The notes below the pieces were generated by a model. It searched no databases. It was not told the origin of the DNA and saw nothing but the letters and a program-made list of their open reading frames with translations. Below are positions 11,971-27,548 of a stretch of DNA of 64,000 nucleotides, in pieces. Each line of letters starts with the position of its first letter. Position 1 is the stretch's first letter. Made by a program: the position numbers and the translations under genes. The stretch is from Arcobacteraceae bacterium (GTDB lineage Bacteria > Campylobacterota > Campylobacteria > Campylobacterales > Arcobacteraceae): positions 800,001 through 864,000 of the forward strand of contig OY759974.1 of NCBI GenBank assembly GCA_963662945.1. The letters run 5' to 3'.

Positions 11971-12002
11971 ATTATAAAATTTCTTTGTTAATCAGATGTT
12001 AA
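11971..12002 (-). promoter_or_regulatory. TTAACA direct-repeat promoter, copy A (drives the 57-aa gene)
   Basis: Minus strand TTAACA-TCTGA-TTAACA-N9-TATAAT. Confidence 0.75.
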
Positions 12003-12034
12003 TTAACGATTAATTAACATTCCTATACTACCAT
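12003..12034 (+). promoter_or_regulatory. TTAACA direct-repeat promoter, copy B (OprC-like receptor)
   Basis: TTAACG-ATTAA-TTAACA-N9-TACCAT. Confidence 0.7.
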
Positions 12035-12060
12035 TTTCATAAATTTTGAAAAGGAAAACA

Positions 12061-14073
12061 ATGCGAAAAAAAATAGTTTTATCAATGGCAGCTGCCCTTG
12101 TAATAAGTCTCCAAGCTGAAGATTTAGGTACTATAGAAGTACAAGAAGAAATAAATACAAAGGTTGTTGGTAACATAAGTACTGAGGAAGTTAAAAATGC
12201 AGATTTAGCAGAAGCTTTAGCAAAAAAATCTGCAAGTGTTTCTCTTATAAGAAGAAGTGGTATTGCAAATGATATCGTTCTTAGAGGTCAAAAAAGAGAC
12301 AATATCAAAGTAACTATTGATGATGGAATGGTTTGTGGAGCTTGTCCAAATAGAATGGATCCACCAACATCACATGTAATTACAACTATGGTTGATAGTG
12401 TAGAGATAAAAGAGGGACCATTTGATGTGACAGAATTTGGAACACTTAGTGGTGGAGTAAAAATTAAAACCGTAGAGCCAAAAGAAGGTTTACATGGAGA
12501 AATTGGTACAACTATTGGAAGTTATGGTTATAAAAAAGGTGTTGTAAGTGTATCTGGTGGAAATGATAAAATAAAAGCTTTATTTACATATTCAAAAGAA
12601 GAAAGTGATCAATATGAAGATGGCGATGGACATACATTAGCTGAACAAACTGCCTTAGTACAAAATCCTGCACAATATAATACTATGAATGATAATAGAT
12701 ATCTAGATGCTTATAAAGATATGAAAGCATATGAAAAAAGATCTATTATGGCAAAAGCAATTGCAAATATTACTGATTCACAAGAAGTTGAAATCAGTGC
12801 TACACAAAATCGAAGTGACGATATCCTTTATCCATCAAGTGGTATGGATGCACTTTACGATGATAGTAATCTTTATAATGTAAAATATACTGCTAGAGAC
12901 TTAGGGGATTTTTCAAAAAAATTAGAAATAAAAGCTTATAGAACAGATGTTGACCATCCTATGGCAATAGATTACAGAATAAAAAATAACTATGTGCCAG
13001 CAGGAAGTAAAGGATTGACAAATCACCTTACAACAGATGTTACTGGTGCAAAAATCATCAATACACTTGATGCTTTAAACAGAGAATTTACAATAGGTTT
13101 AGATACTAGTAATAGAAATTGGGATGGAGATTATTATAGTGACATTAATCCTTTTATAAGAAAAAGTATAAATGATACAGATACAATCAACAAGGCAATA
13201 TTTGTAAAATGTAAAAATCAATTAGATAAACTTACTCTAGAATTAGGTGTAAGATATGATAATACAACAGTTGACACAAATGGGGCAGATCAGGATAATA
13301 AATACACTGATTTCAGTGGAAATATTATGGCAACATATAATAGTGATGAAAATACAAAATATTTTATTGGATTAGGACAAGCTAGCCGTGTTCCAGATGC
13401 AAGAGAACTCTATTTTATAGCTTCTAATGGAACTAGTGTAGGTACTGAAACTTTAAATGCAACTACAAATAGAGAATTAGACTTCGGAACAGAGCATCAC
13501 TATAAAGATGGAAAAATAAAAGCAAAATTTTTCTATAGTGATTTACAAGATTATATCTATTATAGAAACACTGGTGCAGCAACAAATAAATTTGAAAATA
13601 TTGATGCTAAAATATATGGACTTGAACTTAGTGGTGCGTATTACATAAATGATCAGTTTACACTAGATGCCGGTTATACTTGGAAAAGAGGGAAAAAAGA
13701 CAACCCTATTGCAGGACAATCAGATAAAGACTTAGCAGATATTACACCACCAAAATTAACATTAGCACTTAATTATGACTATAATAATTATACAAATGCA
13801 ATGATAGAATTTATCAATGTATCATCATGGAAAAATTATGATAGTGACAATGGGGAGCAACATATTAATGGGTATAATGTAGTAAATATTAAAGCACAAA
13901 CAACAATTGCAAAAAACTTTGAAATTACTATAGGTATTGACAACCTTTTTGATAAAACTTATGCTGTTTCAAATACATATAGAGACTTAACTCTTTTAAG
14001 TGATGGTACAGAAGTAATGCTTCTTAACGAACCAGGAAGATATATCTACACAAGTTTAAAATATAAATTCTAA
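12061..14073 (+). CDS. TonB-dependent copper receptor, OprC/NosA-like
   Basis: Signal peptide; plug motif CGACPNRMDPP (CxxxM); barrel GMDA and DHPM (HxM); C-terminal YKF. Start taken at ATG 12061 after an AAGGA RBS. Confidence 0.85.
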   Translation: MRKKIVLSMAAALVISLQAEDLGTIEVQEEINTKVVGNISTEEVKNADLAEALAKKSASVSLIRRSGIANDIVLRGQKRDNIKVTIDDGMVCGACPNRMDPPTSHVITTMVDSVEIKEGPFDVTEFGTLSGGVKIKTVEPKEGLHGEIGTTIGSYGYKKGVVSVSGGNDKIKALFTYSKEESDQYEDGDGHTLAEQTALVQNPAQYNTMNDNRYLDAYKDMKAYEKRSIMAKAIANITDSQEVEISATQNRSDDILYPSSGMDALYDDSNLYNVKYTARDLGDFSKKLEIKAYRTDVDHPMAIDYRIKNNYVPAGSKGLTNHLTTDVTGAKIINTLDALNREFTIGLDTSNRNWDGDYYSDINPFIRKSINDTDTINKAIFVKCKNQLDKLTLELGVRYDNTTVDTNGADQDNKYTDFSGNIMATYNSDENTKYFIGLGQASRVPDARELYFIASNGTSVGTETLNATTNRELDFGTEHHYKDGKIKAKFFYSDLQDYIYYRNTGAATNKFENIDAKIYGLELSGAYYINDQFTLDAGYTWKRGKKDNPIAGQSDKDLADITPPKLTLALNYDYNNYTNAMIEFINVSSWKNYDSDNGEQHINGYNVVNIKAQTTIAKNFEITIGIDNLFDKTYAVSNTYRDLTLLSDGTEVMLLNEPGRYIYTSLKYKF

Positions 14074-14081
14074 TCAATAAC

Positions 14082-14100
14082 AAGAGGGGTTTCCCCTCTT
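14082..14100 (+). terminator. Hairpin/terminator after the receptor gene
   Basis: AAGAGGGG-TTT-CCCCTCTT. Confidence 0.7.
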
Positions 14101-14112
14101 AATAAAACCTCT

Positions 14113-14144
14113 TTAACACTTACTTAACATTTTTTTTGTAACAT
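14113..14144 (+). promoter_or_regulatory. TTAACA direct-repeat promoter, copy C (exbBD)
   Basis: TTAACA-CTTAC-TTAACA-N9-TAACAT. Confidence 0.75.
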
Positions 14145-14167
14145 ATCCAAAAATTTATGGAGAATTT

Positions 14168-14605
14168 ATGAATATAGAGTTATTAAAAGAGATTGTAGAT
14201 TATGGAATTATTGGCCTCTTAGGTTTTATGAGTTTTCTCTCATTTTGGCTTTATATAGAAAGACTTTTATTTTATAAAAATATCAATATCAAAAATTATG
14301 CAAAAAAAGAACAACTCGAAATAGAACTTACAAACAATATCTCAATTATCTCTTCATTTGGTTCAAATGCACCATATATTGGACTTCTTGGAACTGTCTT
14401 TGGTATCATTATCACATTTTACACTATGGGTCAAAGTGGAGATATAGATGTAAAAACTATTATGAGTTCTTTAGGTCTTGCACTTAAAGCTACAGCTATG
14501 GGTCTTCTTGTAGCAATACCAGCAATAATGTTTTATAATCATTTAACAAGAAAAATTGAAGTTAAACTAGCACTTTGGGATATGGAGTTTAAAAGTGCAG
14601 CTTAA
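14168..14605 (+). CDS. exbB: TonB system energizer ExbB
   Basis: NAPYIGLLGTVFGI...ALKATAMGLLVAIPA. Confidence 0.95.
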   Translation: MNIELLKEIVDYGIIGLLGFMSFLSFWLYIERLLFYKNINIKNYAKKEQLEIELTNNISIISSFGSNAPYIGLLGTVFGIIITFYTMGQSGDIDVKTIMSSLGLALKATAMGLLVAIPAIMFYNHLTRKIEVKLALWDMEFKSAA

Positions 14606-14975
14606 AAAGTTTGATTCTATAAATGTTGTACCATTTATAGATATTATGCTTGTACTTTTAGTCATTGTACTTACAACTGCATCTTTTGTAGCACGTGGCA
14701 TAATACCTGTAGACTTAAGTGAAGGAAAAAGTGCTCTAAAATTAACAGAACAAAAGATTATAACTATCACAATTAAAGACTCTGGAGAATTATTTCTAGA
14801 TAAAGAACTTACTACACATAAAAAAATTGAGGAAAAACTTTCACAACTTAAAACTTCAACACCTATTAGCATAAATTGTGATAAAAATGCAAAATTTGAG
14901 AACTTTGTTCAAGTCATTGATATCTTAAAATTAAAAAACTTCACAAATCTAAGTATTATTACAAAACAAGAATAA
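14595..14975 (+). CDS. exbD: TonB system protein ExbD
   Basis: INVVPFIDIMLVLLVI; overlaps the exbB stop. Confidence 0.95.
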   Translation: MQLKKFDSINVVPFIDIMLVLLVIVLTTASFVARGIIPVDLSEGKSALKLTEQKIITITIKDSGELFLDKELTTHKKIEEKLSQLKTSTPISINCDKNAKFENFVQVIDILKLKNFTNLSIITKQE

Positions 14976-14994
14976 TCTTATTTATAACTTAAAA

Positions 14995-15026
14995 TTAACA
15001 TCTAATTAACACTTCTTAGTTATTAT
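14995..15026 (+). promoter_or_regulatory. TTAACA direct-repeat promoter, copy D (receptor-DCCP operon)
   Basis: TTAACA-TCTAA-TTAACA-N9-TATTAT. Confidence 0.8.
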
Positions 15027-15052
15027 TCGCAAAAAATTGGGAATGAAAAAGG

Positions 15053-17185
15053 ATGTTAATGAATAACAAGATATGTATATCACTTATCTGTGCACTTGCA
15101 CTAAGTGGAAATGCAGCAGATTTGGGTACTATAAGTGTTGAATCTTCAACAATTGATGATAAATTTGAAAGTAAAAAAACTGAAGTTTCAAATACAGCAA
15201 TTATAACTTCTGAAGATGTAGAGAAAATTCATGCTACTAATGTTGAAAATATACTTAATACAATACCAGGAATTACAGCTTCAAATGTAGGAAATGATAG
15301 AGTTAAGATACACATAAGAGGTATAGATAACCAAATGTATATGGGTGAAAAACCAGGAGTTGCTGTTGTAATTGATGGTGTACCAGTACAAGAAACAACT
15401 GGTAAAATTAATCTAGACCTCGATAATATTGCTTCAATTAAAGTAATCAAAGGAAGTGCAAGTTACCTTTATGGGAATGATGCAATTGCAGGTGCAATAG
15501 TTATAACAACAAAAAGACCAAAAGGTTTAAGTAGTTCAAAATTAGAAACAGAACTTGGTAGTTTTGGATTTAAAAGAATATTAGCTGGAACAAATCAAAG
15601 TTTAGAAAATGGTGCTTTTCAACTACAAGGTACTATACGAGATAGTGATGGTTATTGGGATGATGCATATTTAAAACATAAATCAATTAATGGTAAATAT
15701 CAACACTATCTAAGCGAAACAAGTGATTTAACATTTGGAGCAGATTATACAAAACGAGAAACAGGAGATGGTTCAAGTGTACATGGAGAAACACAATCTA
15801 TACTTAATCCTAAAAGTGTTACTGAAGTTTCTTATGCTGGTTATTATGATACAACACTGATTAAAACTTTTCTAACCTATTCTAATGATATTGATGAGAA
15901 TTCAAATTTTATGGTAAATGTCTCAAGATATGAAGACGATACTACTAACCTTTCTGGATCGACAGATACTAATGGTGATAATATTAATGATGACCACAAA
16001 ACTATATCTGATGAAAAATGGATTCAAAATACATTTAAAAGTGAATATAGAAGGTCTTTTGAGAAAATTGCAATTATGACTGGTATAGATTTAGCAAGAA
16101 ATGAACAAAAGAATAAAAGTATTGCAAATTTAACTGTTGGTGGTTTTAGTCCTCAAACAAAAGGAGATATTACAGGTGATTCTAATAATAATGAAGATAT
16201 CAATGCCATATATTTTGAAGTACAAAACCAATTAACGAACAATTTAACTTCAACAATAAATTTTAGGCATGATAATATAAAATATGATTATAAAAATAAT
16301 CTTGATATGACTCTAAATACTGCACCATCATATGATGCAAATACCTATAGAGTAGGATTTAATTATAAATTAAGTGACACAGATAATATTTACACAAGTT
16401 ATGCAACAGGATTTAGAGCACCAACAGCAGAGCAAATAAGTGGAAATATTGATAAACTTCAAGCAAATCCAACATTTGATATTCCAACTACTCTTGATAT
16501 AGAAACTACGAAGAATATAGAACTAGGAATTAGAGGAGACATCTCATCATTAAAATATGATGCTTCTATTTATCAACTTGATAGAAAAGACTATTTAGGT
16601 GTAAGAGCTGGTTCTTATATTAGAGCTTCTGATGATAAAGCAGATTTAGCCGTAGATAATCTGGGAGATATGAGAAGTAGAGGATTTGAATTAGCTCTTA
16701 ATAGTGATAGAAAAAAAGCCATCTCATTTTCAACTGCTTATACATATTTAGATGCAAAATTTAAAGAATATTCATTAAAACAATTAGTTCAAGACAATGT
16801 TTTTCCAATAGCCGATGTTTATCAAACAGTTAATTTAGCAGGAAAAAGAGTACCTAGAACATCAAAACATACTTTAAATATCACTGTTGACTTTAGACCA
16901 ATTGATGGGCTTACAATATCGCCAGAACTTATAGCAAAAAGTAGTTACTATGCAGATGAATTAAACAAATTCAAACAACCTGGCTATGAAATTATAAATT
17001 TAAGATCAGAATATAAAATAAATAAATCTCTGGAAATTTTTGCTAAAATAGAAAACCTTTTAGATAAGAACTACAATCAGTTCGTAAATGTAAGCTCAAG
17101 TGATATTGCAAATAATATGGAAGATGCAACAATCCGTGTTGCACCACCTAGAGCATATTATGCTGGACTTAGATACAAGTTTTAA
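15053..17185 (+). CDS. TonB-dependent receptor, substrate unknown
   Basis: Signal peptide, plug IPGI...IRG...IDGVP...IKGSASYLYGNDAIAG, C-terminal RYKF. Confidence 0.93.
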   Translation: MLMNNKICISLICALALSGNAADLGTISVESSTIDDKFESKKTEVSNTAIITSEDVEKIHATNVENILNTIPGITASNVGNDRVKIHIRGIDNQMYMGEKPGVAVVIDGVPVQETTGKINLDLDNIASIKVIKGSASYLYGNDAIAGAIVITTKRPKGLSSSKLETELGSFGFKRILAGTNQSLENGAFQLQGTIRDSDGYWDDAYLKHKSINGKYQHYLSETSDLTFGADYTKRETGDGSSVHGETQSILNPKSVTEVSYAGYYDTTLIKTFLTYSNDIDENSNFMVNVSRYEDDTTNLSGSTDTNGDNINDDHKTISDEKWIQNTFKSEYRRSFEKIAIMTGIDLARNEQKNKSIANLTVGGFSPQTKGDITGDSNNNEDINAIYFEVQNQLTNNLTSTINFRHDNIKYDYKNNLDMTLNTAPSYDANTYRVGFNYKLSDTDNIYTSYATGFRAPTAEQISGNIDKLQANPTFDIPTTLDIETTKNIELGIRGDISSLKYDASIYQLDRKDYLGVRAGSYIRASDDKADLAVDNLGDMRSRGFELALNSDRKKAISFSTAYTYLDAKFKEYSLKQLVQDNVFPIADVYQTVNLAGKRVPRTSKHTLNITVDFRPIDGLTISPELIAKSSYYADELNKFKQPGYEIINLRSEYKINKSLEIFAKIENLLDKNYNQFVNVSSSDIANNMEDATIRVAPPRAYYAGLRYKF

Positions 17186-17199
17186 AAGAGTAAAATAAC

Positions 17200-17859
17200 T
17201 TGGAACTTACCCCATATCTCTCTATATTTCTTATAGGACTTAGTTTTGGAGCAACGGCATGCATGTTTTCATGTATGCCGTTTCTTACTCCAATATTGGT
17301 AAAGAGTTCTAACAATATTAAAGAATCTTTAGGTGTAATGATTCCTTTTAGTTTAGGAAGAATTTTCACTTATACCATGATTGCTATTTTAGCATTTGCA
17401 AGTTCTTTATTCATAAAAGAGCTTTTAAAAAACAATACACTTTTGAGTTATATTTTAGGAACAGTTACTATTATCTTAGGTTTCACAATGCTTTATAATA
17501 GCTATAAAAACAATAAAGGATGCGGTATCCATAAACCTATAGTAAAAGAACAAAGTTTTTCAAAACTAGGTTTTTTTACTATGGGTGCAACTATATCTAT
17601 AAATCTATGTACACCTGTAATTTCACTGATAACAGTTTCAAGTAGCACTACTACAATCTATTCAGCAATCGCTTTTGGAATAGCTTTTGGTGTTGGGGCT
17701 GTTTTATTTACACTGTTATTTTACGGATTTTTTTTCTCTACACTTATTAGAGGATTGCTTGAACAATTTAACCAGTATAAAAAACATGTAGAAGTTATAG
17801 CTTCACTGTTTTTAATACTTGTTGGTATTTTAATAATCAGTGGCAAGTTGTCACTATAA
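17200..17859 (+). CDS. DsbD_2/CcdA-like (TauE/UreH-like) multi-TM protein
   Basis: ACMFSCMP in TM1, LGRIFTY motif, later LCTP; about six TM helices; TTG start. Confidence 0.75.
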   Translation: MELTPYLSIFLIGLSFGATACMFSCMPFLTPILVKSSNNIKESLGVMIPFSLGRIFTYTMIAILAFASSLFIKELLKNNTLLSYILGTVTIILGFTMLYNSYKNNKGCGIHKPIVKEQSFSKLGFFTMGATISINLCTPVISLITVSSSTTTIYSAIAFGIAFGVGAVLFTLLFYGFFFSTLIRGLLEQFNQYKKHVEVIASLFLILVGILIISGKLSL

Positions 17860-17868
17860 AGGAACAAA

Positions 17869-20592
17869 ATGGTTGATTTTATCAAAAGAGATAACAATGA
17901 TATGTTTAAAAACCCTATTTTTAGGTTTTTATTTAAAAATACAAAATTTCTTTTAGTTTTAAGAATAGCAGTTACACTGCTTTTCTTTTATGCTGTTTAT
18001 TTTGGATTTGTACATCCTACTTCTGAAGAGAACATCTTCACAGGTGCAGTATTTTGGGGAATATTCTGGGCACTATTTATGGTAGTGACTCTTTCAACTT
18101 TTGGAAGAATATTTTGTGGTATTTGTCCACATGGATTTTTAGGAAAATATATTACAAAATTTGGTTTGAAAAAAACCATGCCAAACTGGATGCAAAATAG
18201 ATATATTGGTATCACTTTACTAGTAATTGGTTGGTGGGGAATTTATTATACATTTCCTTCATTTTGGAAAACACCAATTGGAACTGCTTCTATGTTTGGA
18301 GGGATGACATTAATTGCTTTTATTTTTTATTTTATCTATAAAGAGATGAGTTATTGTAAATATATTTGTCCTATTGGAACACTTACAAGAGCATATGACA
18401 AATTATCATTTACAAAACTAGAAACTTATACTGACTCTTGTAAGGATTGTAGAACTTTTGAATGTGCTACAGCTTGTCAATACGATTTAAAACCATTTAC
18501 CTTTGCAAAGAAAAATCAAACTGATGATTGTACCTTATGTATGGATTGTGCTGTATCTTGTGAAGCTGTTAAATTTAAACTTACAAAACCAGCAGAACAA
18601 CTAGGAAGTAAACTAAAAATTTTAAGTGCTGAAGTTTGGACGTATATTCTTATCTTTGCTTCTATTCCTGTATCTATGGGATTTGCACATGGTTTAAATA
18701 GAACTAAAATAGCTGATGAGTTTCTATGGAATAAAACGGCTGCTTTTTTTGGTATGAATGAATATGCAGGTGGATTTGCTTTCCTATATGCTGTTATTTT
18801 TAGTGTATTTTTCGCTACATTTGGAATCTATGTAGCATCTAAAATATTAAAAAAAGAATACAGTTCTACCTTTACTAATTTAGGTGTTGCTTTTATTCCA
18901 CTTTTTATCTTTGCATCACTAGGGCATACATTAGAAACTTTTTTTATCAAAGATTATGTAACAATAGTAGATGGATTTGCACAAGGTTTTGGTTTTAATG
19001 TTGAAGTGGAAGCTTTAGCAAAAAGAGGTGATGGATGGCTTCACTATTTTGGATTATTTAAATGGATAGGAATTATCTGGTCATTTATTCTTCTTTACAA
19101 AAGAATGAAAATGATTGATGCTACAAAATTACGAAAAATATTTGGATACTTTTTTGCTTCATTAATGATTCTTTTTTACATAGGATTAAATATCTATACA
19201 GGATATGTATTTTCTAAATATGGGGCAAAATCACGAAGTGGACATTCTCACGGTGGAAATGGAAAAACAATGTTCCAAAGTGTACCTTTTAAACAAGCTA
19301 CACTTTTACAAGTGGGAAAAGATAAAACAAGTGGTGTAGTATGTGGGATGAATCTTCCTATGTTTTATAAAACAAACCATAGTGCGATACTTGATGGACA
19401 GGTGCGACAATATTGTTCAATACATTGTTTAGCTGAAGATTTACGAATAAAAAATTTAGCTTTGGAAAATATTCAAGTTGTAGATGTAACCAGTTTAAAA
19501 TTCATCCCAGTTAAAGATGCTTTTTATGTGGTTGGAAGTAAACAGCTAGGAACTATGAGTAGAACTAGTAAATATGCTTTTGCTACAGAAAAAGATGCTT
19601 TAGAATTTGTTCAAAAATACGGTGGAGAAATTGTAAATTTTAGAAAAGCAGTTTATATTGCAATGCAAGATTTTTCAAAAAAACCTTATGGAACTCATAC
19701 AGAAAAAACTGCTTTAGATTTGACACAACCATTATATCTTACACTTAAAGACCCCTCTGCATCTAAAGAAAAGTCAGGTGGACATATGCACGGTGGTAGT
19801 GGTGGAAAACCTAAACCTGAAGGATATATCCCCACACAAAAAATATATCTTTCTACTTTAAATAATAAAAGTGTATCTCCTAAAAATATAGAGTTTTTTT
19901 ACTATGATATAAAACAAAAGAAAAAAGATATTATCAAAAATAGTTCAAGAGGAAAAGAAACATATAGTTTTGAAGTACCAAACAATGGATACTACAATCT
20001 TTTTGCTGTAGCACAAAGTACAAAAGATGATAAAAGTTTTTATAATGTAGCAAAACTTGAATATCTTCAAGGAAAACATGGTATTGAAGATATTTATGAT
20101 GAAAAACTTAAAAAAAATCTTGAACAAAACCTTACTAAAATTGATTTAATAAGAATAAAAAATGAAGATGAAAATAGCTTTTTTTATAAATTTAAAATGG
20201 GTGAAACTCTAAAGTTTCAAGCAATATTTGATCAAAAACCTTTAGCAAATGCAAAAATACATATCAAACTCCAAAGTGGTTGGGAAAAAACTTCAATTAC
20301 AAATGATAAAGGTGAAGTAGAACTTACAATTATAAGAGATTATTTTCCACCTTGGAATAAATTTGAAAAACGATTTAAACAAGATTTATTAATAACTTTA
20401 GAACATAATATAGAGAATACAAAATATACACTCACCTACCCTGCTTCTTTTTATCCAAACTCTAGTGATTATGAATCGTATGCTTATGCACTGTTACTTA
20501 TAACACTTACACTACTTATATCTGGTATTGTTATTTATAGATTTAGAAAAAATAGAACAAAACCTTTTAGTGAGGTAAACTTTAATGAGTAA
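17869..20592 (+). CDS. Fusion of membrane 4Fe-4S polyferredoxin, NosL-like metal-binding domain and DUF4198-like domain, with a C-terminal TM anchor
   Basis: GRIFCGICPHG, CKYICPIG, CKDCRTFECATAC, CTLCMDCAVSC; His linkers GHSHGG and GHMHGG; VVCGM...RQYCSIHC...VVGS...GTM NosL-like segment; KPLANAKI...TNDKGEV. Confidence 0.8.
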   Translation: MVDFIKRDNNDMFKNPIFRFLFKNTKFLLVLRIAVTLLFFYAVYFGFVHPTSEENIFTGAVFWGIFWALFMVVTLSTFGRIFCGICPHGFLGKYITKFGLKKTMPNWMQNRYIGITLLVIGWWGIYYTFPSFWKTPIGTASMFGGMTLIAFIFYFIYKEMSYCKYICPIGTLTRAYDKLSFTKLETYTDSCKDCRTFECATACQYDLKPFTFAKKNQTDDCTLCMDCAVSCEAVKFKLTKPAEQLGSKLKILSAEVWTYILIFASIPVSMGFAHGLNRTKIADEFLWNKTAAFFGMNEYAGGFAFLYAVIFSVFFATFGIYVASKILKKEYSSTFTNLGVAFIPLFIFASLGHTLETFFIKDYVTIVDGFAQGFGFNVEVEALAKRGDGWLHYFGLFKWIGIIWSFILLYKRMKMIDATKLRKIFGYFFASLMILFYIGLNIYTGYVFSKYGAKSRSGHSHGGNGKTMFQSVPFKQATLLQVGKDKTSGVVCGMNLPMFYKTNHSAILDGQVRQYCSIHCLAEDLRIKNLALENIQVVDVTSLKFIPVKDAFYVVGSKQLGTMSRTSKYAFATEKDALEFVQKYGGEIVNFRKAVYIAMQDFSKKPYGTHTEKTALDLTQPLYLTLKDPSASKEKSGGHMHGGSGGKPKPEGYIPTQKIYLSTLNNKSVSPKNIEFFYYDIKQKKKDIIKNSSRGKETYSFEVPNNGYYNLFAVAQSTKDDKSFYNVAKLEYLQGKHGIEDIYDEKLKKNLEQNLTKIDLIRIKNEDENSFFYKFKMGETLKFQAIFDQKPLANAKIHIKLQSGWEKTSITNDKGEVELTIIRDYFPPWNKFEKRFKQDLLITLEHNIENTKYTLTYPASFYPNSSDYESYAYALLLITLTLLISGIVIYRFRKNRTKPFSEVNFNE

Positions 20593-21601
20593 AATCAAAC
20601 AACTTGTAAATAATATGAATCTTATCAAAGTAAGATTTACTATTCAATTACTGACTTTTATTTTATTTGTTTATGGTGGTTATTTTGCCATTGATTTTGG
20701 TTCAAGACTGCCTATTTTTGCCTGTCCTTATAATAAAGAAGCAGCTGGAGCTTGTTATTTAATTCCATTACAACATCAGTTAGGTATGCCAGCACAAATA
20801 TTACTTGGTGGGGCTGGAATTGCAGTTATTACTGGATTTTTAACATTTCTTTTTTGGTTTATATTTCTAAATAAAGCTTGGTGTGGATATGTATGTCCTT
20901 TTGGAACATTACAAGATTGGCTAACAATGCTTAGAAAAAATATGGGTATACGTTTTTCAACATATACACAAAATCAATTTGAAAAACTTTCAAAAATAAA
21001 ATATATCCTTTTAGCTATTGTTATTTTAGTACCTCTTCTTATGGGTGTTGGCGTTTTTGGAAGAGAATGGTCTGCTGCATTTTGTCAAATCTGTCCAGCA
21101 CGAATCATCTCTCCTATGTTTAGTGGAGATTTCTCTCAATGGACAATAGACTTTTCTACTAAAACAGCCATGGTATTAACTGCTATTGGGATGATATTTG
21201 CTGGATTATTTTTAATTGGTAGTTTTGTAAAAAAAAGATTCTTTTGCTTCTTTTGTCCGATGAGTGCCTTGCATTATATTTTTTCAAAGTTCTCAATTGT
21301 AAGTTTACAAAAAGATGGAAGTAAATGTACACGATGTGGAGATTGTTATGCTGTATGTGATATGCAGATAAAAGATATAGCAGATGATGTTACAAGTACA
21401 AATATCTTAAGAGATGATTGTATTTTATGTTTAAAATGTATAGCTGCATGTCCGGAAGATGATGCACTGCATTTTGATATATTAAAATTCAAAACTTTTA
21501 GCTCTACAAAACAAGGTTTTGAAAAGAGAATGGGAATAGAAAGACCAAAACAAGCTGAGGCGAAGTTTCCTCGAAAAGGATTAAATGATGAGCAACAATG
21601 A
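20585..21601 (+). CDS. NapH/MauN-like membrane 4Fe-4S protein
   Basis: WCGYVCPFG, FCFFCPMS, CTRCGDCYAVC, CILCLKCIAACP; several TM helices. Confidence 0.88.
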   Translation: MSKIKQLVNNMNLIKVRFTIQLLTFILFVYGGYFAIDFGSRLPIFACPYNKEAAGACYLIPLQHQLGMPAQILLGGAGIAVITGFLTFLFWFIFLNKAWCGYVCPFGTLQDWLTMLRKNMGIRFSTYTQNQFEKLSKIKYILLAIVILVPLLMGVGVFGREWSAAFCQICPARIISPMFSGDFSQWTIDFSTKTAMVLTAIGMIFAGLFLIGSFVKKRFFCFFCPMSALHYIFSKFSIVSLQKDGSKCTRCGDCYAVCDMQIKDIADDVTSTNILRDDCILCLKCIAACPEDDALHFDILKFKTFSSTKQGFEKRMGIERPKQAEAKFPRKGLNDEQQ

Positions 21602-22868
21602 GAATCATAAAATAGAAACACCACTTGAAAAACAAAACAGACATAAAGCTATGGAAGCAATTAAGGTAATTAATACTTTAAAAGAAGAGTTTAAATCTCC
21701 TATAAAATCTATGGATTATTTTTATACACTTTTTGAAGATGTATATTGTCATCAAAAATCACTTCATGCTGATAAAGTAAAAGTGGGAACCATGTGTATT
21801 CAAATACCAAGTGAAATTATATATGCACTTGATGGTGTTCCTATTCGACTTTGTAACGGATTTTATACAGATGATGAGCTAGGAAGTGATCTTATGCCTC
21901 AAAAATCTTGTCCACTGGTTAAAGCAAGTGTTGGGCACTTGTCAAGTCAAAATTTAAGTGACAAACCACATATGATTTATAGTCCTACAACTTGTGATCA
22001 AAAAACAAAAGCTGGTGCAACTATTGAAAGTTTTGGATATGAGGTAGTTGATGTAGATTTCCCAAGAACAAAAGAGAGTGAGGTAAGTCGTGAATTTTTT
22101 AGAAGAAGTATCAGAAATTTTGCCATAGATTTATCAAAAAAAACTGGAAAAAAACTCACTAAAAAAAATTTAAAAAGCTCCATTGGAAAAGTTGGTTATG
22201 CACAATCTTTATATCATAGACTATCTGATTTAAGAAAAAATAAAAATGTACCAATATTAGGTGTTGATATGTTTTTAGTTACCAATGCTTTTTTCTTTGA
22301 TAAAATTGACAATTGGATAAAAGCTACAGAAATTTTACTGCATGACTTAGAGTTAAGGGTAAAAGAAAATATTCATGTAGCAGGAAAAATCAGTCCAAGA
22401 ATAGTTTATACAGGTTCACCACCTATTTTCCCAAATTATAAAATACCATTACTTATTGAAGAATCAGATGCAGTTATAGTTGCAGATGAAACTTGCAGTT
22501 CAAATAGAATGTTCAACGATCGAGTTGCAGTGGATGAATGGTTTGTAAATGATATGTTGGATTCTATGGCAGATAAATATCTTAAGGCTTGTACTTGTCC
22601 AATATTTACAAAAAATGATGACCGTATTCGAAGAATTATAGAACTTGTTCGTTCATATGATGCAGATGGTGTTATCTATCAAGCTTTTGCTGGTTGTACT
22701 GTATATGAGTTAGAACAAAGAAGTGTTTTAGAAGCTATGGAAAAAGAGGGGATCTCTATACTTTATTTAGAAAGTGATTATTCACCTAGCCAAAGTGGAC
22801 AGCTAAGTACCAGAGTTGAAGCATTTATAGAATCACTCAAAATGAAAAAAAGAAAAAAAGGAAAATAG
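21585..22868 (+). CDS. 2-hydroxyacyl-CoA dehydratase (HGD-D) family protein, probable double-cubane cluster protein (DCCP)
   Basis: Single 427-aa subunit with C71, C109, C137(xxK140), C304, C338 and C371(xxY374); C-terminal LESDY...TRVEAFIE. Confidence 0.82.
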   Translation: MMSNNENHKIETPLEKQNRHKAMEAIKVINTLKEEFKSPIKSMDYFYTLFEDVYCHQKSLHADKVKVGTMCIQIPSEIIYALDGVPIRLCNGFYTDDELGSDLMPQKSCPLVKASVGHLSSQNLSDKPHMIYSPTTCDQKTKAGATIESFGYEVVDVDFPRTKESEVSREFFRRSIRNFAIDLSKKTGKKLTKKNLKSSIGKVGYAQSLYHRLSDLRKNKNVPILGVDMFLVTNAFFFDKIDNWIKATEILLHDLELRVKENIHVAGKISPRIVYTGSPPIFPNYKIPLLIEESDAVIVADETCSSNRMFNDRVAVDEWFVNDMLDSMADKYLKACTCPIFTKNDDRIRRIIELVRSYDADGVIYQAFAGCTVYELEQRSVLEAMEKEGISILYLESDYSPSQSGQLSTRVEAFIESLKMKKRKKGK

Positions 22869-22869
22869 T

Positions 22870-23673
22870 ATGAAATATTTTGCTGGAATCGATATAGGTT
22901 CAACTGCCATTAAAATCTCAATAGCTGATGAAAATAAAAATCTTGTAGGACACAAAATCAGTGCAAGTGGAAGTATGTTTTATAAATATGCTCATGAAAC
23001 TTTAGATGCACTTGTTTCAGAAATAGGGATAAAAAAAGAAGATATTATATACACTGTAGCAACTGGTTATGGAAGAAAAATATTTAAAGAAGCTGATGAA
23101 AATATTAGTGAAATTACTGCAAATGCGATAGGTGCACGAGCTGCCGCTAAAGAATATGGAGAGATTAAAACTATTATTAATATTGGTGGTCAAGATAGTA
23201 AAGCAATTTCACTAGATGAAGAGGGAAATGTAACAAATTTTGCTATGAATGACAGATGTGCAGCTGGTACTGGAAAATTTCTTGATGCATGTGCTATGAA
23301 TCTTGAAATAACAGTAGAAGAACTTGGAGATAAACATTTTGCCTCAACTGGAACACCATTATCAATCAATAGTACTTGTGCAGTATTTGCAGAGAGTGAA
23401 ATTATAGGACTTTTAGGGAATAGTCATAGTGTCGAAGATATTGTATGTGGTGTACACTATTCTATTGCAAAAAGAATTGTAAAACTTGTAAAAAGAGTTG
23501 GTGTCAAAGAAGGAGTATATTTTGATGGTGGTCCAGCACTTAATACAGGATTAGTCAATGCACTTGAAAATGAACTTAGTTGTAAGATATTTATTCCTCA
23601 ATATCCACAAATCACTACATCTTATGGAGCAGCGATTATTGGAGTAGATTCTTATAATTACGAAAATGAATAA
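22870..23673 (+). CDS. ASKHA-type ATP-dependent [4Fe-4S] activase (HgdC/BcrAD/BadFG family; DCCP reductase-like)
   Basis: GIDIGST, ATGYGR, IGGQDSK, MNDRCAAGTG, STCAVFAESE. Confidence 0.93.
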   Translation: MKYFAGIDIGSTAIKISIADENKNLVGHKISASGSMFYKYAHETLDALVSEIGIKKEDIIYTVATGYGRKIFKEADENISEITANAIGARAAAKEYGEIKTIINIGGQDSKAISLDEEGNVTNFAMNDRCAAGTGKFLDACAMNLEITVEELGDKHFASTGTPLSINSTCAVFAESEIIGLLGNSHSVEDIVCGVHYSIAKRIVKLVKRVGVKEGVYFDGGPALNTGLVNALENELSCKIFIPQYPQITTSYGAAIIGVDSYNYENE

Positions 23674-23677
23674 TTAA

Positions 23678-26600
23678 ATGTTTGACAAAACTATAAAATT
23701 TTTTATTGAAAATTATAAAATAAACTATGCTTTATTTATATTCTTATTTATTGTCGGAATCTATTCTTATACAAAAATTCCTAAAGAAGTACAACCAACT
23801 ATTGAACCTAGCACTATAAGGGTAAGCGGAAATTACAGTGGAGCTTCTGTTGACATTTTAAATAAAATGGCTGTCATACCTTTAGAAAATGAAGTAAAAA
23901 ATATTGTTGGTGTAGATAATATTATTACAAATATCAATCCAGGTAAATTTTCTATCACTTTAGAACTTGATAAATACGAGAAAAAAGAGGATATAAAAGA
24001 AAATGTAAAAGATGCAATTGCAATGATTATCTCTGATTTACCAGCAGATATGGATGAACCTTTGATTAAAGCTGTTGCTCATGCACGTTCATTAATGTAT
24101 GTTTCAGTTCTTTCTACAAAAATCTCTAGAGATGATCTTTTAAAAATTGCAAAAGATTTAAAAACAACTCTTTTAGGCATCCCTTTTATTTCAGATATTA
24201 CAATATTTGGTGAATCAGATGAATATTATGAAATACAAATTGATGAAAAAAAAATAGAAGCTTTTGGACTAGAAAAAAAAGATATCTCTTCAATAATTGC
24301 TGAACTCTCTTATACTTTTCCAGCAGGAAAAATGGAAGGGAAAAAAAATCAATTTTATCTTTCAACTGCAAATGGGAAAAAAAGTGCTGAAAACTTAGCA
24401 AATACACTTTTAAAAATAAATGATAAAACAATCTATTTTAAAGATATAGCTACCATTACAAAACGTTATGAAGATTCTTCAACACTTGCTAGTATGAATG
24501 GGAAAGGCGCTATTACACTTGCTATCTCACAAAATCCAAGAGGTGATGCCATAACATTATCAGAACAAGTGAGAGATGTACTTGATAAATCAAAAAAAGC
24601 AAATATTACTTTTGATATTAAAAGAGATAATTCATTTCAAGTAAAAGAGAGTTTAAATATAGTTTTCTCAAATATCATTTTTGGAATACTATTAATTTGT
24701 TTATTTACTATTGTTCTTATTAATTCCCGTATGGCATTAGTTATTATTATGGGTATACCAACTTCTTTTGTTATAGGTGCAATCTATTTTTATTTTACAG
24801 GATATAGTATTAATGTACAATCACTTGTAGGAGTACTTTTAGCAATTGGTATTATTGTTGATGATGCAATTGTTGTAAGTGAAAATATTCAACAATATAT
24901 TGAACGTGGCTATCCACCAAAAGAAGCTGCATATTTGGGAACAAAAGAGATGGCAAAACCAGTTTTTTGGGCATCTGTAACTACTCTTTTCTCATTTATA
25001 CCATTGTTAATGATTAGTGGTAGAATGGGTGAAATTATTCAGCTTATTCCTATAGCATTTAGTGCACTTATTTTTGCTTCACTTATTGAGTCATTCATCT
25101 TTTTACCTATACATGCTTCCCATATTTTAAATAATAATTCAAAAACCTTATCATGGGAAAAAAGCAAAAATATTTACACTAAAATTTTACATAACTTGAT
25201 GAAATATAAAAAAAGTTTTTTACTGATTTTTATTATCAGCGTTCCATTACTCATATTTTTTAGTGCAAAGCATTCAAAATTTCATATGTTTCAAAAATTT
25301 GATTCATCAAATGTAAACATTACCTTTAAAGGGAATAAAAATATGACACTTGAAGAAACATCTTTAATGGTACGTCAAATAGAACAAGACCTTTTAAAAT
25401 CCAAAGAGAAATTTTTTATAAAAAATGTAAGTTCAACAGCTGGTCATAGAAGAACAGCAACGGGAGAAACAGAAATTTATCCTTATGTTGGGAATATTAC
25501 AGTTGAACTTTATGAAAAAAAACCAAGTAATTTTTTCGAAGCATATATTAGCCCTTTGTTTAGTATTTATTATGAAAAAGAGGGACGAATACGAACCCTT
25601 CCATCTAAAGTTGTATCAAAACAATTGCGAGGTTGGTTAAAAGAACAACATTATAAAAGAAAATATAAATTAGAGCAAATAATGGTTGTTGAAAATAGAA
25701 TGGGAGCAACAAAAGCTGATATTAGAATTGGGTTAGTCAGTAATGATTACCAAAAAGCTTTACAAGGGGTAGATGAACTTCAAAAAGAGATTGAAAATAT
25801 AAAAGGGGTTAAATATAGTGGGAATAATATTAAATTTGGGATTGATGAACTGAAATTTCATATTAATAGCTATGGAGAATCACTTGGTGTAACAGAAAAA
25901 TATCTTGGTAATTTCTTAGCAAATGTCTATATGGATAAAAAAATAGCAACAATTTATGGTACAAATGAATCATTTGAGGTTAAATCAAAATCACTTTATA
26001 GTGATAATTTTGATTACTTTAAAAATATCACTATACCTTTAAAAGATTCAAGAGTAGTACACTTGCACGAGATATGTGATATATCTACCATAAAATCACT
26101 TGAGAAATTAGTCAAAGATAATGGTATTACTACATTTTATGTTTTTGCAAACGTTGATAATGATATCATCACTTCAAGTGAGGTTTTAGAAAAAATACAA
26201 CCAACAATAAAGAAACTAAAACAAAATGGTATAAAATTTATTTTCAAAGGGGAACAAGAGCAAAAGAAAAAACTAGAAATAGAGATGCTTCTATCAATAC
26301 TTTTAGCTCTTAGCTTAATATTTTTATCACTTCTTTATCTTTTTAACTCCATTAAAGAAACTCTTTTAGTGATGTCTGTTATTCCATTTTCTATGCTTGG
26401 GCTTTATATGGGACATTTTATTTTAGGATTACATATAACAGTTCCATCACTTATTGGTGCAATTGGACTTGCTGGTGTTATTGTTAATGATGGAATTATT
26501 ATGATGGACTCTATTAAAAAATCAACAACCCAAAAAGAGTTTTTTCACAATGCTGCTAAAAGATTTAGACCAATTATTTTAACCTCTATTACTACAATTG

Positions 26601-26758
26601 TTGGATTGTTTACACTTATCTTTTTTGCAACTGGTATGGCTGTTAGTTTTCAACCAATGGCTGTAACAATAGGGTTTGGACTTCTTTGGGGGACTATTTT
26701 AAATCTTTTATATTTACCTGTAATGTATGGATATTTTAATAATAAGCATTTAAAGTGA
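23678..26758 (+). CDS. RND-family (AcrB-like) permease
   Basis: 1026 aa; IGIIVDDAIVVSENI; RFRPIILTSITT. Confidence 0.93.
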   Translation: MFDKTIKFFIENYKINYALFIFLFIVGIYSYTKIPKEVQPTIEPSTIRVSGNYSGASVDILNKMAVIPLENEVKNIVGVDNIITNINPGKFSITLELDKYEKKEDIKENVKDAIAMIISDLPADMDEPLIKAVAHARSLMYVSVLSTKISRDDLLKIAKDLKTTLLGIPFISDITIFGESDEYYEIQIDEKKIEAFGLEKKDISSIIAELSYTFPAGKMEGKKNQFYLSTANGKKSAENLANTLLKINDKTIYFKDIATITKRYEDSSTLASMNGKGAITLAISQNPRGDAITLSEQVRDVLDKSKKANITFDIKRDNSFQVKESLNIVFSNIIFGILLICLFTIVLINSRMALVIIMGIPTSFVIGAIYFYFTGYSINVQSLVGVLLAIGIIVDDAIVVSENIQQYIERGYPPKEAAYLGTKEMAKPVFWASVTTLFSFIPLLMISGRMGEIIQLIPIAFSALIFASLIESFIFLPIHASHILNNNSKTLSWEKSKNIYTKILHNLMKYKKSFLLIFIISVPLLIFFSAKHSKFHMFQKFDSSNVNITFKGNKNMTLEETSLMVRQIEQDLLKSKEKFFIKNVSSTAGHRRTATGETEIYPYVGNITVELYEKKPSNFFEAYISPLFSIYYEKEGRIRTLPSKVVSKQLRGWLKEQHYKRKYKLEQIMVVENRMGATKADIRIGLVSNDYQKALQGVDELQKEIENIKGVKYSGNNIKFGIDELKFHINSYGESLGVTEKYLGNFLANVYMDKKIATIYGTNESFEVKSKSLYSDNFDYFKNITIPLKDSRVVHLHEICDISTIKSLEKLVKDNGITTFYVFANVDNDIITSSEVLEKIQPTIKKLKQNGIKFIFKGEQEQKKKLEIEMLLSILLALSLIFLSLLYLFNSIKETLLVMSVIPFSMLGLYMGHFILGLHITVPSLIGAIGLAGVIVNDGIIMMDSIKKSTTQKEFFHNAAKRFRPIILTSITTIVGLFTLIFFATGMAVSFQPMAVTIGFGLLWGTILNLLYLPVMYGYFNNKHLK

Positions 26759-26767
26759 TATTTAAAA

Positions 26768-26810
26768 TTAACACTTAATTAACACTTCTTTTATAAAATG
26801 GAAGTGTTAA
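26768..26810 (+). promoter_or_regulatory. TTAACA direct-repeat promoter, copy E (tonB), with an extra inverted copy downstream
   Basis: TTAACA-CTTAA-TTAACA-N9-TAAAAT, then GAAGTGTTAA (reverse complement of TTAACACTTC). Confidence 0.8.
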
Positions 26811-26831
26811 TATGGGAAAAGGAGAGTAGTT

Positions 26832-27548
26832 TTGAATATAAAAAGATATTTTAATTCGTTTTTTGTAGCTTCTATATTCTATAGTTTCTTAATTATTACT
26901 CTTCTTTATTCATTTGAAGAAGTCAATATTGCACCTTCAAAAACACAACATTCAATCCAAAATGTCAAATTTACCCTTATTAATTTACCAAAAGAAATAG
27001 AAAAACCTGAAGTTGAAAAACAAGAGATTGTTAAAAAAGAACCTCAACCTAAACAAATAGAACCAAAAGTTGTTAAAAAAATTAATCCTAAAAAAATATC
27101 TCCTAAAAAAATTGTTAAAAAAATAGAACCAAAAGTTGAAAAAAAAGAAAAAGAAATTGTTAAAAAAACAGAAAAGATAAAAAAACAAATTGTTGCAAAT
27201 CAAATTAAAAAAAGTGACTCTACTGAAAAAAAAGAAACTGTAAAAACTGATTTAAAACAATTAAAAATGAAACAACATAAATATTATTCTCAAATCAAAC
27301 AAACAATTGATAAAAATAAATCATATCCTCAAGTTGCTGTACGAAGAGGAATTCAAGGTGAAGTAAAAATACAATTTACAATATCAAAAGATGGTGAGTT
27401 ACTTTCATATAAAATATTAGATGGACAAAAAATATTTTTTAAGTCTATCAGTGAAGCTATACAAAATAGTTTCCCTCTTATTCCTCCAAATGATATTTTT
27501 ACATCAAACCTAGATTTAAAATTAACATTACACTATAAGTTGTATTAA
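26832..27548 (+). CDS. tonB: Energy transducer TonB
   Basis: N-terminal TM, K/P/E-rich linker, C-terminal YPQVAVRRGIQGEVKIQFTISKDG. Confidence 0.92.
   Translation: MNIKRYFNSFFVASIFYSFLIITLLYSFEEVNIAPSKTQHSIQNVKFTLINLPKEIEKPEVEKQEIVKKEPQPKQIEPKVVKKINPKKISPKKIVKKIEPKVEKKEKEIVKKTEKIKKQIVANQIKKSDSTEKKETVKTDLKQLKMKQHKYYSQIKQTIDKNKSYPQVAVRRGIQGEVKIQFTISKDGELLSYKILDGQKIFFKSISEAIQNSFPLIPPNDIFTSNLDLKLTLHYKLY

Follow-up and report, generated by a model that had tools for sequence, protein, structure and literature searches.

We analyzed a 64,000-nucleotide stretch of the genome of an Arcobacteraceae bacterium (GenBank assembly GCA_963662945.1, contig OY759974.1, positions 800,001 to 864,000; hereafter “the window”), which has 29% GC and comes from a complete 2.5 Mb genome with Arcobacteraceae as its closest named relatives. 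At 15053–26758, entirely on the + strand, the window carries seven genes that link TonB-dependent uptake and membrane ferredoxins to a double-cubane-cluster-type protein (DCCP) and its ATP-dependent activase. The intergenic spacings within this run are +14, +9, −8, −17, +1, and +4 nt in the list of open reading frames (ORFs), and these co-directional, closely packed genes sit exactly where the original prediction, an earlier reading of the bare sequence, had placed them. Domain calls on the window proteins, made with Pfam and NCBIfam models and compared with their curated cut-offs, backed all of its gene identifications except for the number of cysteines in the enzyme. The seven genes are as follows:

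15053..17185, +, TonB-dependent receptor (Pfam TonB_dep_Rec and Plug)
17200..17859, +, CcdA-like DsbD_2 membrane protein (Pfam DsbD_2, 57.3 bits; cut-off 24.9)
17869..20592, +, polyferredoxin-NosL-DUF4198 fusion protein (two Fer4_5; NosL, 55.4 bits, cut-off 24; DUF4198, 19.7 bits, below the cut-off of 34)
20585..21601, +, NapH-like membrane ferredoxin (NapH-like Fer4_5 plus dicluster ferredoxin)
21585..22868, +, DCCP, a single HGD-D subunit (HGD-D; NF040772 double_cubane, 318.4 bits, cut-off 350)
22870..23673, +, ATP-dependent [4Fe-4S] reductase/activase, or archerase (BcrAD_BadFG; TIGR00241, 221.5 bits, cut-off 125)
23678..26758, +, RND permease (ACR_tran), an accessory and variable part

As originally described, this run is nested between exbB/exbD upstream (14168–14975) and tonB downstream (26832–27548), and the longer run from 12046 to 27548, i.e., an OprC-like receptor, exbB/exbD, the seven genes, and tonB, likewise lies entirely on the + strand in the ORF list. 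The surrounding features are:

11986–12002 (−) and 12003–12019 (+), candidate operator before the copper receptor, an exact TTAACA-N5-TTAACA followed by a one-mismatch copy
12046..14073, +, OprC/NosA-type TonB-dependent copper receptor, a co-regulated neighbor outside the seven-gene run
14113..14129, +, candidate operator TTAACACTTACTTAACA before exbB (motif match)
14168–14605, +, exbB (TIGR02805, 187.5 bits; cut-off 135)
14595–14975, +, exbD (TIGR02804, 115.6 bits; cut-off 123)
14995..15011, +, candidate operator TTAACATCTAATTAACA before the seven-gene run (motif match, repeated before the receptor genes of related loci)
26768..26784, +, candidate operator TTAACACTTAATTAACA before tonB (motif match)
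26832..27548, +, tonB (Pfam TonB_C)

A terminator scan found no terminator-like site between the seven genes, the two weak ones it returned both lying within the fusion ORF. Promoter-like sites were fewer in the window (85) than in shuffled sequences (98), in a scan that is uninformative in AT-rich DNA. Between the copper receptor and exbB, at 14081–14101, lies a perfect 9-bp GC-rich hairpin (AAGAGGGGxxxCCCCTCTT) that looks like a bidirectional terminator and would split the copper receptor from the exbBD transcript.

Conservation and regulation of the gene cluster

Comparison across lineages supports the seven genes being a conserved functional unit rather than a chance neighborhood. A scan of one genome per species identified 121 relatives, the best 80 of which (69–96% identity) were taken for analysis; these 80 belong to Arcobacteraceae, Halarcobacter, Sulfurimonas, Sulfurovum, Sulfuricurvum, and unclassified Campylobacterota. 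Part counts are based on those 44 loci whose 10 kb flanks are complete: the DCCP occurs in 44/44, DsbD_2 in 43/44, the receptor and the fusion or DUF4198-like protein in 42/44 each, the activase in 41/44, TonB in 31/44, ExbB in 25/44, ExbD in 23/44, and an orthologous RND permease in 10/44. The NapH-like gene is found in nearly all loci by tblastn, a better count than the 33/44 obtained by ORF calling, which is an undercount since an opposite-strand ORF displaced the gene. The fusion protein is modular, with its N-terminal polyferredoxin in 33/44 loci, its NosL domain in 20/44, and its DUF4198 part in 36/44; in the remaining loci, a stand-alone protein of ~318 residues, remotely homologous to the DUF4198 part by hhalign (probability 97.6%, E 4.8e-12), takes the place of the fusion.

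At larger distances, DCCP relatives with ≥57% identity were detected in 10/301 genomes of an even phylum sample, and the order receptor, DsbD_2, polyferredoxin, NapH, DCCP, and activase was kept in 3/3 loci of a subclade at 57–59% identity. A representative at 54% identity, P0124, retains the motif AVDEWMVNDM and served as query for a metagenome scan that returned 57 loci. Among the 28 of these that are ≥9 kb and were counted (40–65% GC), the NapH-like protein and the DCCP are present in 28/28 contigs, the activase and a DUF4198-like protein in 27/28 each, DsbD_2 in 24/28, and the receptor in 21/28. Based on the part counts across loci and contigs, the invariant core consists of the receptor, a DUF4198-like module, the NapH-like protein, the DCCP, the activase, and DsbD_2. 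The linkage of the DCCP gene to the receptor and the ferredoxins, whose conservation the original prediction had left to neighborhood analysis, is thus conserved in Campylobacterota loci and in GC-rich contigs alike. With contigs of 40–65% GC against 29% GC in the window, the core appears to reach beyond Campylobacterota. Both the RND permease and the NosL domain are optional parts. In several lineages, one of them represented by a metagenome contig of 42% GC, genes for small EF-hand proteins directly follow the cluster or its tonB (examples are L033:13749-14156, L141:11867-12544, and the four loci of cluster c30).

Regulation adds a second layer of linkage. The direct repeat TTAACA-N5-TTAACA has four exact sites in the window versus 0.35 expected, a number reached in 0/100 shuffles, and these sites precede the OprC-type receptor, exbB, the seven-gene operon, and tonB. 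The promoter motif that had originally been noticed before the copper receptor and the operon was therefore borne out, although it is not limited to these two and marks exbB and tonB as well. Five exact copies exist in the whole 2.5 Mb genome, four of them in the window; the fifth (G000:C1:1934200-1934270) lies in a GTGCTAA-type short tandem repeat directly before an obg-like GTPase gene and is probably a chance match. Across the 80 related loci, 97 exact copies were found, paired with the receptor 60 times, with exbB 21 times, with tonB 4 times, and with DsbD_2 3 times, the latter being the loci in which DsbD_2 comes first.

An OmpR-type regulator and a small kinase adjoin the cluster in 10/44 full-flank loci, and the 11-bp spacing of the repeat suits such a regulator. 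The orthologous pair in this genome (C1:2417886-2419405, ~52% identical) lies away from the cluster. The kinase has only two transmembrane (TM) helices and a loop of ten residues, and neither protein of the pair matches a specific NCBIfam family, with heavy-metal models scoring far under their cut-offs and no metal revealed. Overall, these sequence patterns support the seven-gene unit belonging to a metal regulon tied to the copper receptor.

Further operator sites lie at variant loci. In an Arcobacteraceae variant (L029:2935-3843, −), the genes for a stand-alone NosL of 164 aa and a 135-aa DsrE-like protein diverge from the receptor gene, with TTAACA-N5-TTAACA in between; in the SAO locus described by Haft and Gwadz (bioRxiv 10.1101/2022.07.06.499078), DCCPs likewise have DsrE-like and MerB/NosL-like proteins as neighbors. 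In two Sulfuricurvum-type loci (L051:17779-19173, −; L062:8284-9678, −), the operator precedes a gene for a 464-aa protein that resembles cytochrome bd oxidase subunit I at its N-terminus (5doq_A, E 8e-9) and has a cytochrome c domain at its C-terminus; an ArsC-family gene lies on the other side.

The double-cubane protein and its predicted membrane partner

The enzyme of the operon (427 residues) matches the solved DCCP chains 7yyl_C and 6eno_A at E ~1e-61, versus E ~2e-15 for BzdN and ~7e-12 for HadC. It had been described as a six-Cys protein, which we correct to seven: C71, C90, C109, C137, C304, C338, and C371 are invariant in 29/29 rows of an alignment that takes in two generic Campylobacterota DCCPs, and all of them align with those of 6eno and 7yyl. 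Successive cysteines are separated by 18, 18, 27, 166, 33, and 32 residues, with the first and third spacings 1–2 residues below the DCCP motif as printed, CX19CX18-19CX29CX166-170CX32-34CX32C (PMC7317905). The NF040772 double_cubane score (318.4 bits) falls under the curated cut-off of 350, and we file the enzyme as a DCCP-type relative, not an equivalog, with a predicted [8Fe-9S] cluster. The two-subunit design of dehydratases and benzoyl-CoA reductases is excluded since the HGD-D gene at the locus is the sole match in the whole genome; Pfam places the protein in the 2-hydroxyglutaryl-CoA dehydratase D-component family, an annotation corrected here. The adjacent activase aligns with HadI (4eht) at E 4.1e-61, including both cluster-binding Cys motifs.

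Searching 1.84 billion cluster representatives (50% clustering), we found 2234 proteins matching the DCCP at E ≤0.001, of which three are full-length near representatives (65, 54, and 47% identity) before identity falls to ≤39%. The protein thus appears to form a compact clade of its own. DCCPs have been characterized structurally and catalyze nitrogenase-like reductions, while their physiological function is still stated as unknown in the accessible text of PMC7317905 and PMC9351452. Separately, the gene for a generic DCCP homolog (~31% identical) in a large Campylobacterota genus (g11) has one in-frame TAG in most genomes and TAA instead in a few (G034, G069, G093, and G096, with ~20 more genomes affected), which could be two genes, a conserved pseudogene, or read-through.

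Complex-structure prediction, by which the original prediction had proposed to examine the membrane components, docked the DCCP on the NapH-like ferredoxin with scores of 0.68, 0.68, and 0.65 in three runs, against 0.16 for the best control and 0.00 for the two others. The mark used for such scores is reached by 58/80 solved complexes and 2/110 mismatched pairs, a calibration that is approximate here given our own alignments. The runs agree in ≥83% of contacts, with a partner pLDDT ≥79. On the NapH-like side, the predicted interface comprises the ferredoxin Cys loops (245–257 and 284–290) and the C-terminal tail; on the DCCP side, it comprises residues 201–211, 242–245, 311–335, and 346–356. 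These DCCP positions are 86% identical within the clade versus 79% for the rest of the protein, and only 6% identical in two generic DCCPs without a membrane partner versus 29% for the rest. The two genes overlap by 17 nt. We know of no solved complex between a DCCP and a membrane ferredoxin.

The predicted interface would leave room for the activase. The DCCP reductase docks on the C-terminal helix and N111 of DCCP (PMC9351452), and since it uses a different surface, the activase and the NapH-like protein could bind the DCCP together. According to the same source, neither dithionite nor Ti(III) citrate reduces the double-cubane cluster, so that a ferredoxin-type cluster would accept electrons from the DCCP in a downhill step, whereas transfer in the opposite direction would not be downhill. 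Electrons would then flow from the DCCP to the ferredoxin, and the predicted docking points at least as much to electrons entering a membrane/periplasm chain as to the opening of a chelate in the cytoplasm.

Membrane modules, receptors, and the metal

The NapH-like ferredoxin has four TM helices, two 4-Cys ferredoxin motifs, and three C-x2/3-C-P motifs, one of them assigned to the periplasmic side by hydropathy, and its first loop, presumably periplasmic, holds two invariant cysteines (C47 and C57). It scores below the NapH cut-offs (NF007013, 88.6 bits against 234; TIGR02163, 81.9 bits against 213), and the domain scan of the window proteins found no nap or nos structural genes at the locus. 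The 907-residue fusion protein starts with a NapH-like polyferredoxin membrane domain, has extra TM helices, and is anchored by a TM segment at its C-terminus; its periplasmic section consists of a NosL-like domain (C-G-M ... C-S-x-H-C), a GGHMHGG loop, and a DUF4198/Zcp-like domain. A model of this periplasmic section (~415 residues, 25-sequence alignment, mean pLDDT 75) matched three metal-binding structures in Foldseek: Zcp (9mhl, E 8.5e-11, TMt 0.56), which was crystallized with Zn, Co, and Cu and is the first characterized DUF4198 protein (PMC12663993); a Ni-bound DUF4198 protein (9gcb, E 1.4e-6); and the NosL copper chaperone (7og7, TMt 0.69). Solved NosL was also found with a profile of the region (E 4.6e-10), in an alignment that pairs up the CGM and FCS motifs.

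Candidate metal ligands in this section are strongly conserved. C37, M39, C61, H64, and C65 of the NosL-like part are invariant in alignment A1, as are the GGHMHGG loop and H282, with H184 and H186 of the H-M-H nearly invariant; stand-alone homologs carry Cys-Cys pairs instead. In Zcp, the metal site is built of three histidines, H29, H31, and H142 (PMC12663993). The fusion protein carries the annotation “nitrous oxide reductase accessory protein NosL”, also where a search finds no N2O reductase, and this annotation is corrected here. A role of the NosL domain in NosZ maturation was considered and rejected: the genome has no NosZ (0 candidates), so NosL does not serve an N2O reductase here, and NosZ scores above cut-off in 2/9 DCCP-positive genomes.

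The DsbD_2 protein contains invariant C21-x3-C25-M-P, C108, and C137-x-P (alignment A4) and shows the CcdA/DsbD pattern of a six-TM fold with redox cysteines beside prolines, C25-M-P in TM1 and C137-x-P in TM4. CcdA (5vkv) is the sole fold match of its model (TM 0.59, E 0.027). The Pfam scan of the window detected no thioredoxin-like periplasmic client for it, and also no ApbE or FMN-binding gene at the locus. Its extra invariant cysteines, C21 and C108, would be compatible with a metal-permease role.

The receptor of the operon has PqqU (9c4o, E 3e-23) and YncD (6v81, E 4e-23) as nearest solved structures, and no NCBIfam family reaches its cut-off, the best scores coming from siderophore, PqqU, heme, and B12 receptor models. 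For the OprC-like neighbor at 12046–14073, OprC chains are the only PDB relatives (E 1.6e-30), with its ACPNRMD and HPM aligned to ACPNRMD and HIM of OprC, i.e., to the CxxxM/HxM copper ligands defined in PMC7558416; its TIGR01778 score (187.8 bits) is below the cut-off of 472.45. In three close relatives, the ortholog of this receptor has one internal TAA while the DCCP cluster is intact (G013:C1:369028-371046, G015:C1:217435-219465, and G020:C1:2465325-2467334). At the other end of the operon, the RND permease has no adjoining adaptor or outer-membrane gene. The original prediction counted it as part of the core system, which does not hold with orthologs in only 10/44 full-flank loci. Non-orthologous RND pumps, 22–25% identical, lie beside the cluster in 3/3 loci of the 57–59% subclade, and the pumps score best as RND_permease_2, not CusA/CzcA.

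Copper is most likely the metal handled, as judged from genomic signatures that include the OprC-type ligands of the co-regulated neighbor and the NosL-type domain. In a genus sample, an OprC-like ortholog (≥66% identity) is present in 8/9 DCCP-positive versus 1/16 DCCP-negative genomes, a comparison that, the genomes being kin, does not amount to a statistical test. Motifs in the DUF4198-like proteins of the clusters are HMH, runs rich in Met (MGMAM, MGGM, MSM), or two Cys-Cys pairs. In a GC-rich lineage (the near-identical loci L114 and L120), the receptor gene is preceded by two DUF2946/CruR-like ORFs that carry CxxC and, at the C-terminus, RGPP, and DUF2946/CruR is a copper-sensing upstream ORF (uORF) heading copper-acquisition operons (PMC9426467). 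Searching all loci by tblastn and motif, we found CruR-like ORFs in L114 and L120 only, and none in Campylobacterota loci. A selenium link, suggested by the correlation of DCCP with SelD, was also considered and rejected: SelD above cut-off is missing from this genome and present in 2/9 DCCP-positive genomes of the genus sample.

Proposed mechanism and rival explanations

With moderate confidence, we read the cluster as a dedicated, separately regulated, ATP-energized, and membrane-coupled reductive acquisition system for a soft or thiophilic trace metal, most likely copper, carried by bacteria of sulfidic or low-oxygen habitats. In such a system, a metal complex would enter the periplasm through the receptor and be held there by the DUF4198/NosL module. 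The activase would spend ATP to charge the DCCP cluster with very low-potential electrons, and the DCCP, sitting on the cytoplasmic ferredoxin domain of the NapH-like protein, would pass them toward the periplasmic side along the Fe-S/Cys-pair chain of the NapH-like proteins, possibly joined by the CcdA-like protein. There, the bound complex would be reduced and the metal freed as a soft ion, to be handed on to periplasmic clients or via the Cys-lined DsbD_2 protein, a possible conduit for the metal or for reducing power. In loci that have it, the RND pump would clear ligand or excess metal. A more specific form of this proposal, which we put forward tentatively, would make the DCCP not a soluble small-molecule reductase but the cytoplasmic head of a membrane-spanning, ATP-driven electron injector that frees copper or another soft metal in the periplasm, its electrons lying far below the quinone/ferredoxin pool and releasing the metal from an otherwise inert imported form.

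Several points weigh against this interpretation. The docking score is the model's confidence rather than a measurement, and is silent on cluster distances and on the direction of transfer, while the quality of the DsbD_2 model is modest (pLDDT 68). The operon's own receptor has neither cysteines nor the OprC motif, and its PqqU/YncD relatives are found at weak E-values; the OprC-like neighbor (≥59% identity) is confined to Arcobacteraceae-type loci. The reduction of Cu(II) to Cu(I) needs no ATP-energized electrons and would not by itself account for a DCCP. DUF4198 proteins are known in connection with Zn, can also bind Co, Ni, and Cu in vitro, and have so far been linked to zinc and iron responses (PMC12663993), and the known activity of DCCPs is throughout the reduction of small soluble molecules (PMC7317905).

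These points feed into two rival explanations that retain the uptake function. In one, the main rival, which we consider doubtful, an imported intact chelate (a chalkophore, a siderophore-like compound, or a metallo-tetrapyrrole) crosses the inner membrane and has its ligand reduced or cleaved by the DCCP in the cytoplasm, with the NapH-like proteins feeding the activase and anchoring the enzyme, and the RND pump exporting the spent ligand. This is close to the first inference of the original prediction, i.e., reductive opening of an imported chelate followed by RND export, which, set in the cytoplasm, can still be entertained, although the RND ortholog is limited to 10/44 loci and the docking fits a membrane chain. 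It would agree with the reduction of small unsaturated molecules by DCCPs, whose physiological substrates are given as unknown in the accessible text of PMC7317905, and with an N-terminal extension of the “small-molecule” class in this DCCP (the alignment starts at residue 41); membrane docking equally fits substrate channeling, and RND pumps recur by the cluster in non-orthologous forms (10/44 orthologs, 3/3 distant-subclade loci). However, the core has no recognizable inner-membrane importer for a large chelate and no ligand biosynthesis genes, the RND pump is absent in 34/44 loci, and the universal presence of the periplasmic metal-binding module and of Cys motifs facing the periplasm favors periplasmic chemistry. 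Alternatively, the same machinery may serve another metal (Ni, Co, Zn, or Fe, e.g., sulfide-bound or strongly chelated), with copper co-regulation a peculiarity of Arcobacteraceae. DUF4198 fold relatives bind Zn, Co, Cu, and Ni (PMC12663993), DUF4198 genes accompany PepSY-like reductases and TonB parts in iron-responsive clusters (bioRxiv 10.1101/2021.01.07.425746), the best models of the operon receptor are siderophore, PqqU, heme, and B12 receptors, all below cut-off, and the OprC-like neighbor is missing from most non-Arcobacteraceae loci. We nevertheless regard this as unlikely: the NosL domain, the Met-rich and Cys-Cys motifs, and the Cys-lined DsbD_2 protein suit a soft metal, a CruR-type copper-sensing uORF precedes the cluster in an unrelated GC-rich lineage, and the operator is an OmpR-type direct repeat that, to our knowledge, is unlike Fur, Zur, or NikR boxes.

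Two further rivals remain. A copper-sparing or respiratory enzyme, in which the DCCP and its NapH/NosL-like partners would reduce a small molecule (e.g., an N-oxide) instead of a cuproenzyme under copper scarcity, could draw on the NapH/NosH-like and NosL-like parts typical of nos clusters, on the nitrogenase-type small substrates of DCCPs (PMC7317905), and on the apparent copper link of the regulon. We hold it to be very improbable, as the TonB receptor, ExbBD-TonB, and the periplasmic metal-binding module are constant parts that would have no role, an ATP-consuming reduction is a poor respiratory strategy, and there is no correlation with the presence or absence of NosZ (2/9 DCCP-positive genomes); we found nothing in support of the second inference of the original prediction, which had an Fe-S reductase replace a cuproenzyme in this way. 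Finally, an ordinary 2-hydroxyacyl-CoA dehydratase or benzoyl-CoA-reductase-like enzyme, lying beside transport genes by chance, is suggested by the Pfam family name HGD-D and by an activase closest to HadI and MbdQ among solved chains. It is hardly credible given a single HGD-D gene without an alpha/beta pair (1 genome match), the invariance of all seven DCCP cysteines, the DCCP chains as closest structures (E ~1e-61 vs ~1e-15 for BzdN and 7e-12 for HadC), and a gene context kept from AT-rich Campylobacterota to contigs of 65% GC; the enzyme is thus not the ordinary dehydratase that had been named as the outcome contradicting the original prediction.

Comparison with known systems helps to place the proposed reductive acquisition system. 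With the DCCP/DCCP-R pair of Carboxydothermus hydrogenoformans (6eno, 7yyl), it shares the seven-Cys motif on a single HGD-D subunit and an ASKHA [4Fe-4S] ATPase encoded beside it, and ATP-energized, very low-potential electrons are expected here as well; it differs in forming its own clade, in a clade-specific surface (311–335) predicted to bind a membrane ferredoxin, and in its TonB uptake operon. Clusters of a TonB receptor, a PepSY-like reductase, and DUF4198 (bioRxiv 10.1101/2021.01.07.425746, PMC12663993) likewise combine a receptor, a transmembrane electron-transfer protein, and a secreted DUF4198 protein, whereas the present one uses NapH-like Fe-S and CcdA-like proteins rather than heme or flavin PepSY systems, and has a cytoplasmic ATP-driven DCCP, reported for none of those in the accessible text of these sources. 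The cupric reductase CcoG (FixG/RdxA), a two-[4Fe-4S] membrane polyferredoxin with a C-terminal periplasmic Ig-like domain that acts on copper (PMC7558416), coarsely resembles the fusion protein, which instead has extra TM helices, NosL and DUF4198 in place of the FixG Ig domain, and no ccoGHIS context; neither NapH-like protein matched a CcoG/FixG model or FixG_C domain at E ≤0.01. NosL, NosH/NapH, and NosR systems also feature a NosL-type Cu(I) chaperone domain (CGM, FCS) and a NapH-type ferredoxin with C-x3-C-P, but here the genome has no nosZ, and NosL is a fused domain rather than a lipoprotein and is absent from 24/44 loci. The copper-repressed TonB-dependent transporter operon bp2923-bfrG-bp2921 of Bordetella pertussis, headed by the CruR uORF with CxxC...RAPP (PMC9426467), is like the GC-rich version of the cluster; CruR-like ORFs are found in one lineage only (2 near-identical loci), and the window has a putative two-component operator instead.

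The nearest published idea, from the accessible text of that preprint, is the SAO locus of Haft and Gwadz (bioRxiv 10.1101/2022.07.06.499078), in which an uptake transporter, an efflux pump, and MerB-like and DsrE-like proteins lie near double-cubane proteins. Both follow a common logic of import, optional efflux, and the handling of soft metals by Cys-rich proteins, with a DCCP and its activase nearby. The SAO locus differs in an ABC importer with selenocysteine, strictly anaerobic hosts, and a SelD correlation, as opposed to a TonB receptor, no selenoprotein signal, and no SelD here; across DCCP-positive genomes, too, the present DCCPs are not tied to SelD (2/9 genomes), unlike those described by these authors. 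In line with the original claim of no described pathway of this composition, we found no description in print: a DCCP and activase wired to NapH-like membrane ferredoxins in a TonB metal regulon was not encountered in the literature searched, nor was anything joining TonB with a double-cubane protein, or with a 2-hydroxyglutaryl-CoA dehydratase in Sulfurimonas. The accessible text of PMC10045233, PMC4674564, and PMC12013277 held nothing relevant, and Sulfurimonas/Sulfurovum expression tables may hold data on these genes. The individual parts are thus of known kinds (TonB uptake with a transmembrane reductase and DUF4198, a CcoG-like polyferredoxin, NosL, CcdA, and DCCP/reductase), and it is their combination that we did not find in print.

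This combination places one DCCP clade in a defined and testable setting, a metal regulon in which a TonB receptor and a periplasmic metal-binding module accompany membrane ferredoxins. Sulfurimonas denitrificans DSM 1251, which encodes the fusion protein, is a carrier available in culture. Injection of electrons across the membrane by the DCCP, if borne out, would give DCCPs their first physiological role and amount to a new form of energized metal acquisition that extends from Campylobacterota to GC-rich lineages. Should the coupling prove real, bacteria of sulfidic waters would pay ATP for a metal made nearly unavailable by sulfide, and an Fe-S/ATP-driven branch would be added to the heme- and flavin-based extracytosolic reductive uptake systems.

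Among minor observations, three ORFs elsewhere in the window, at 32462–33346 (294 aa), 52683–53090 (135 aa), and 54246–55121 (291 aa), match no Pfam family at E ≤1e-5. In addition, the SelD genes of the relatives G006, G008, and G009 and of several order-level relatives have one in-frame TGA, i.e., they are of the selenocysteine type.

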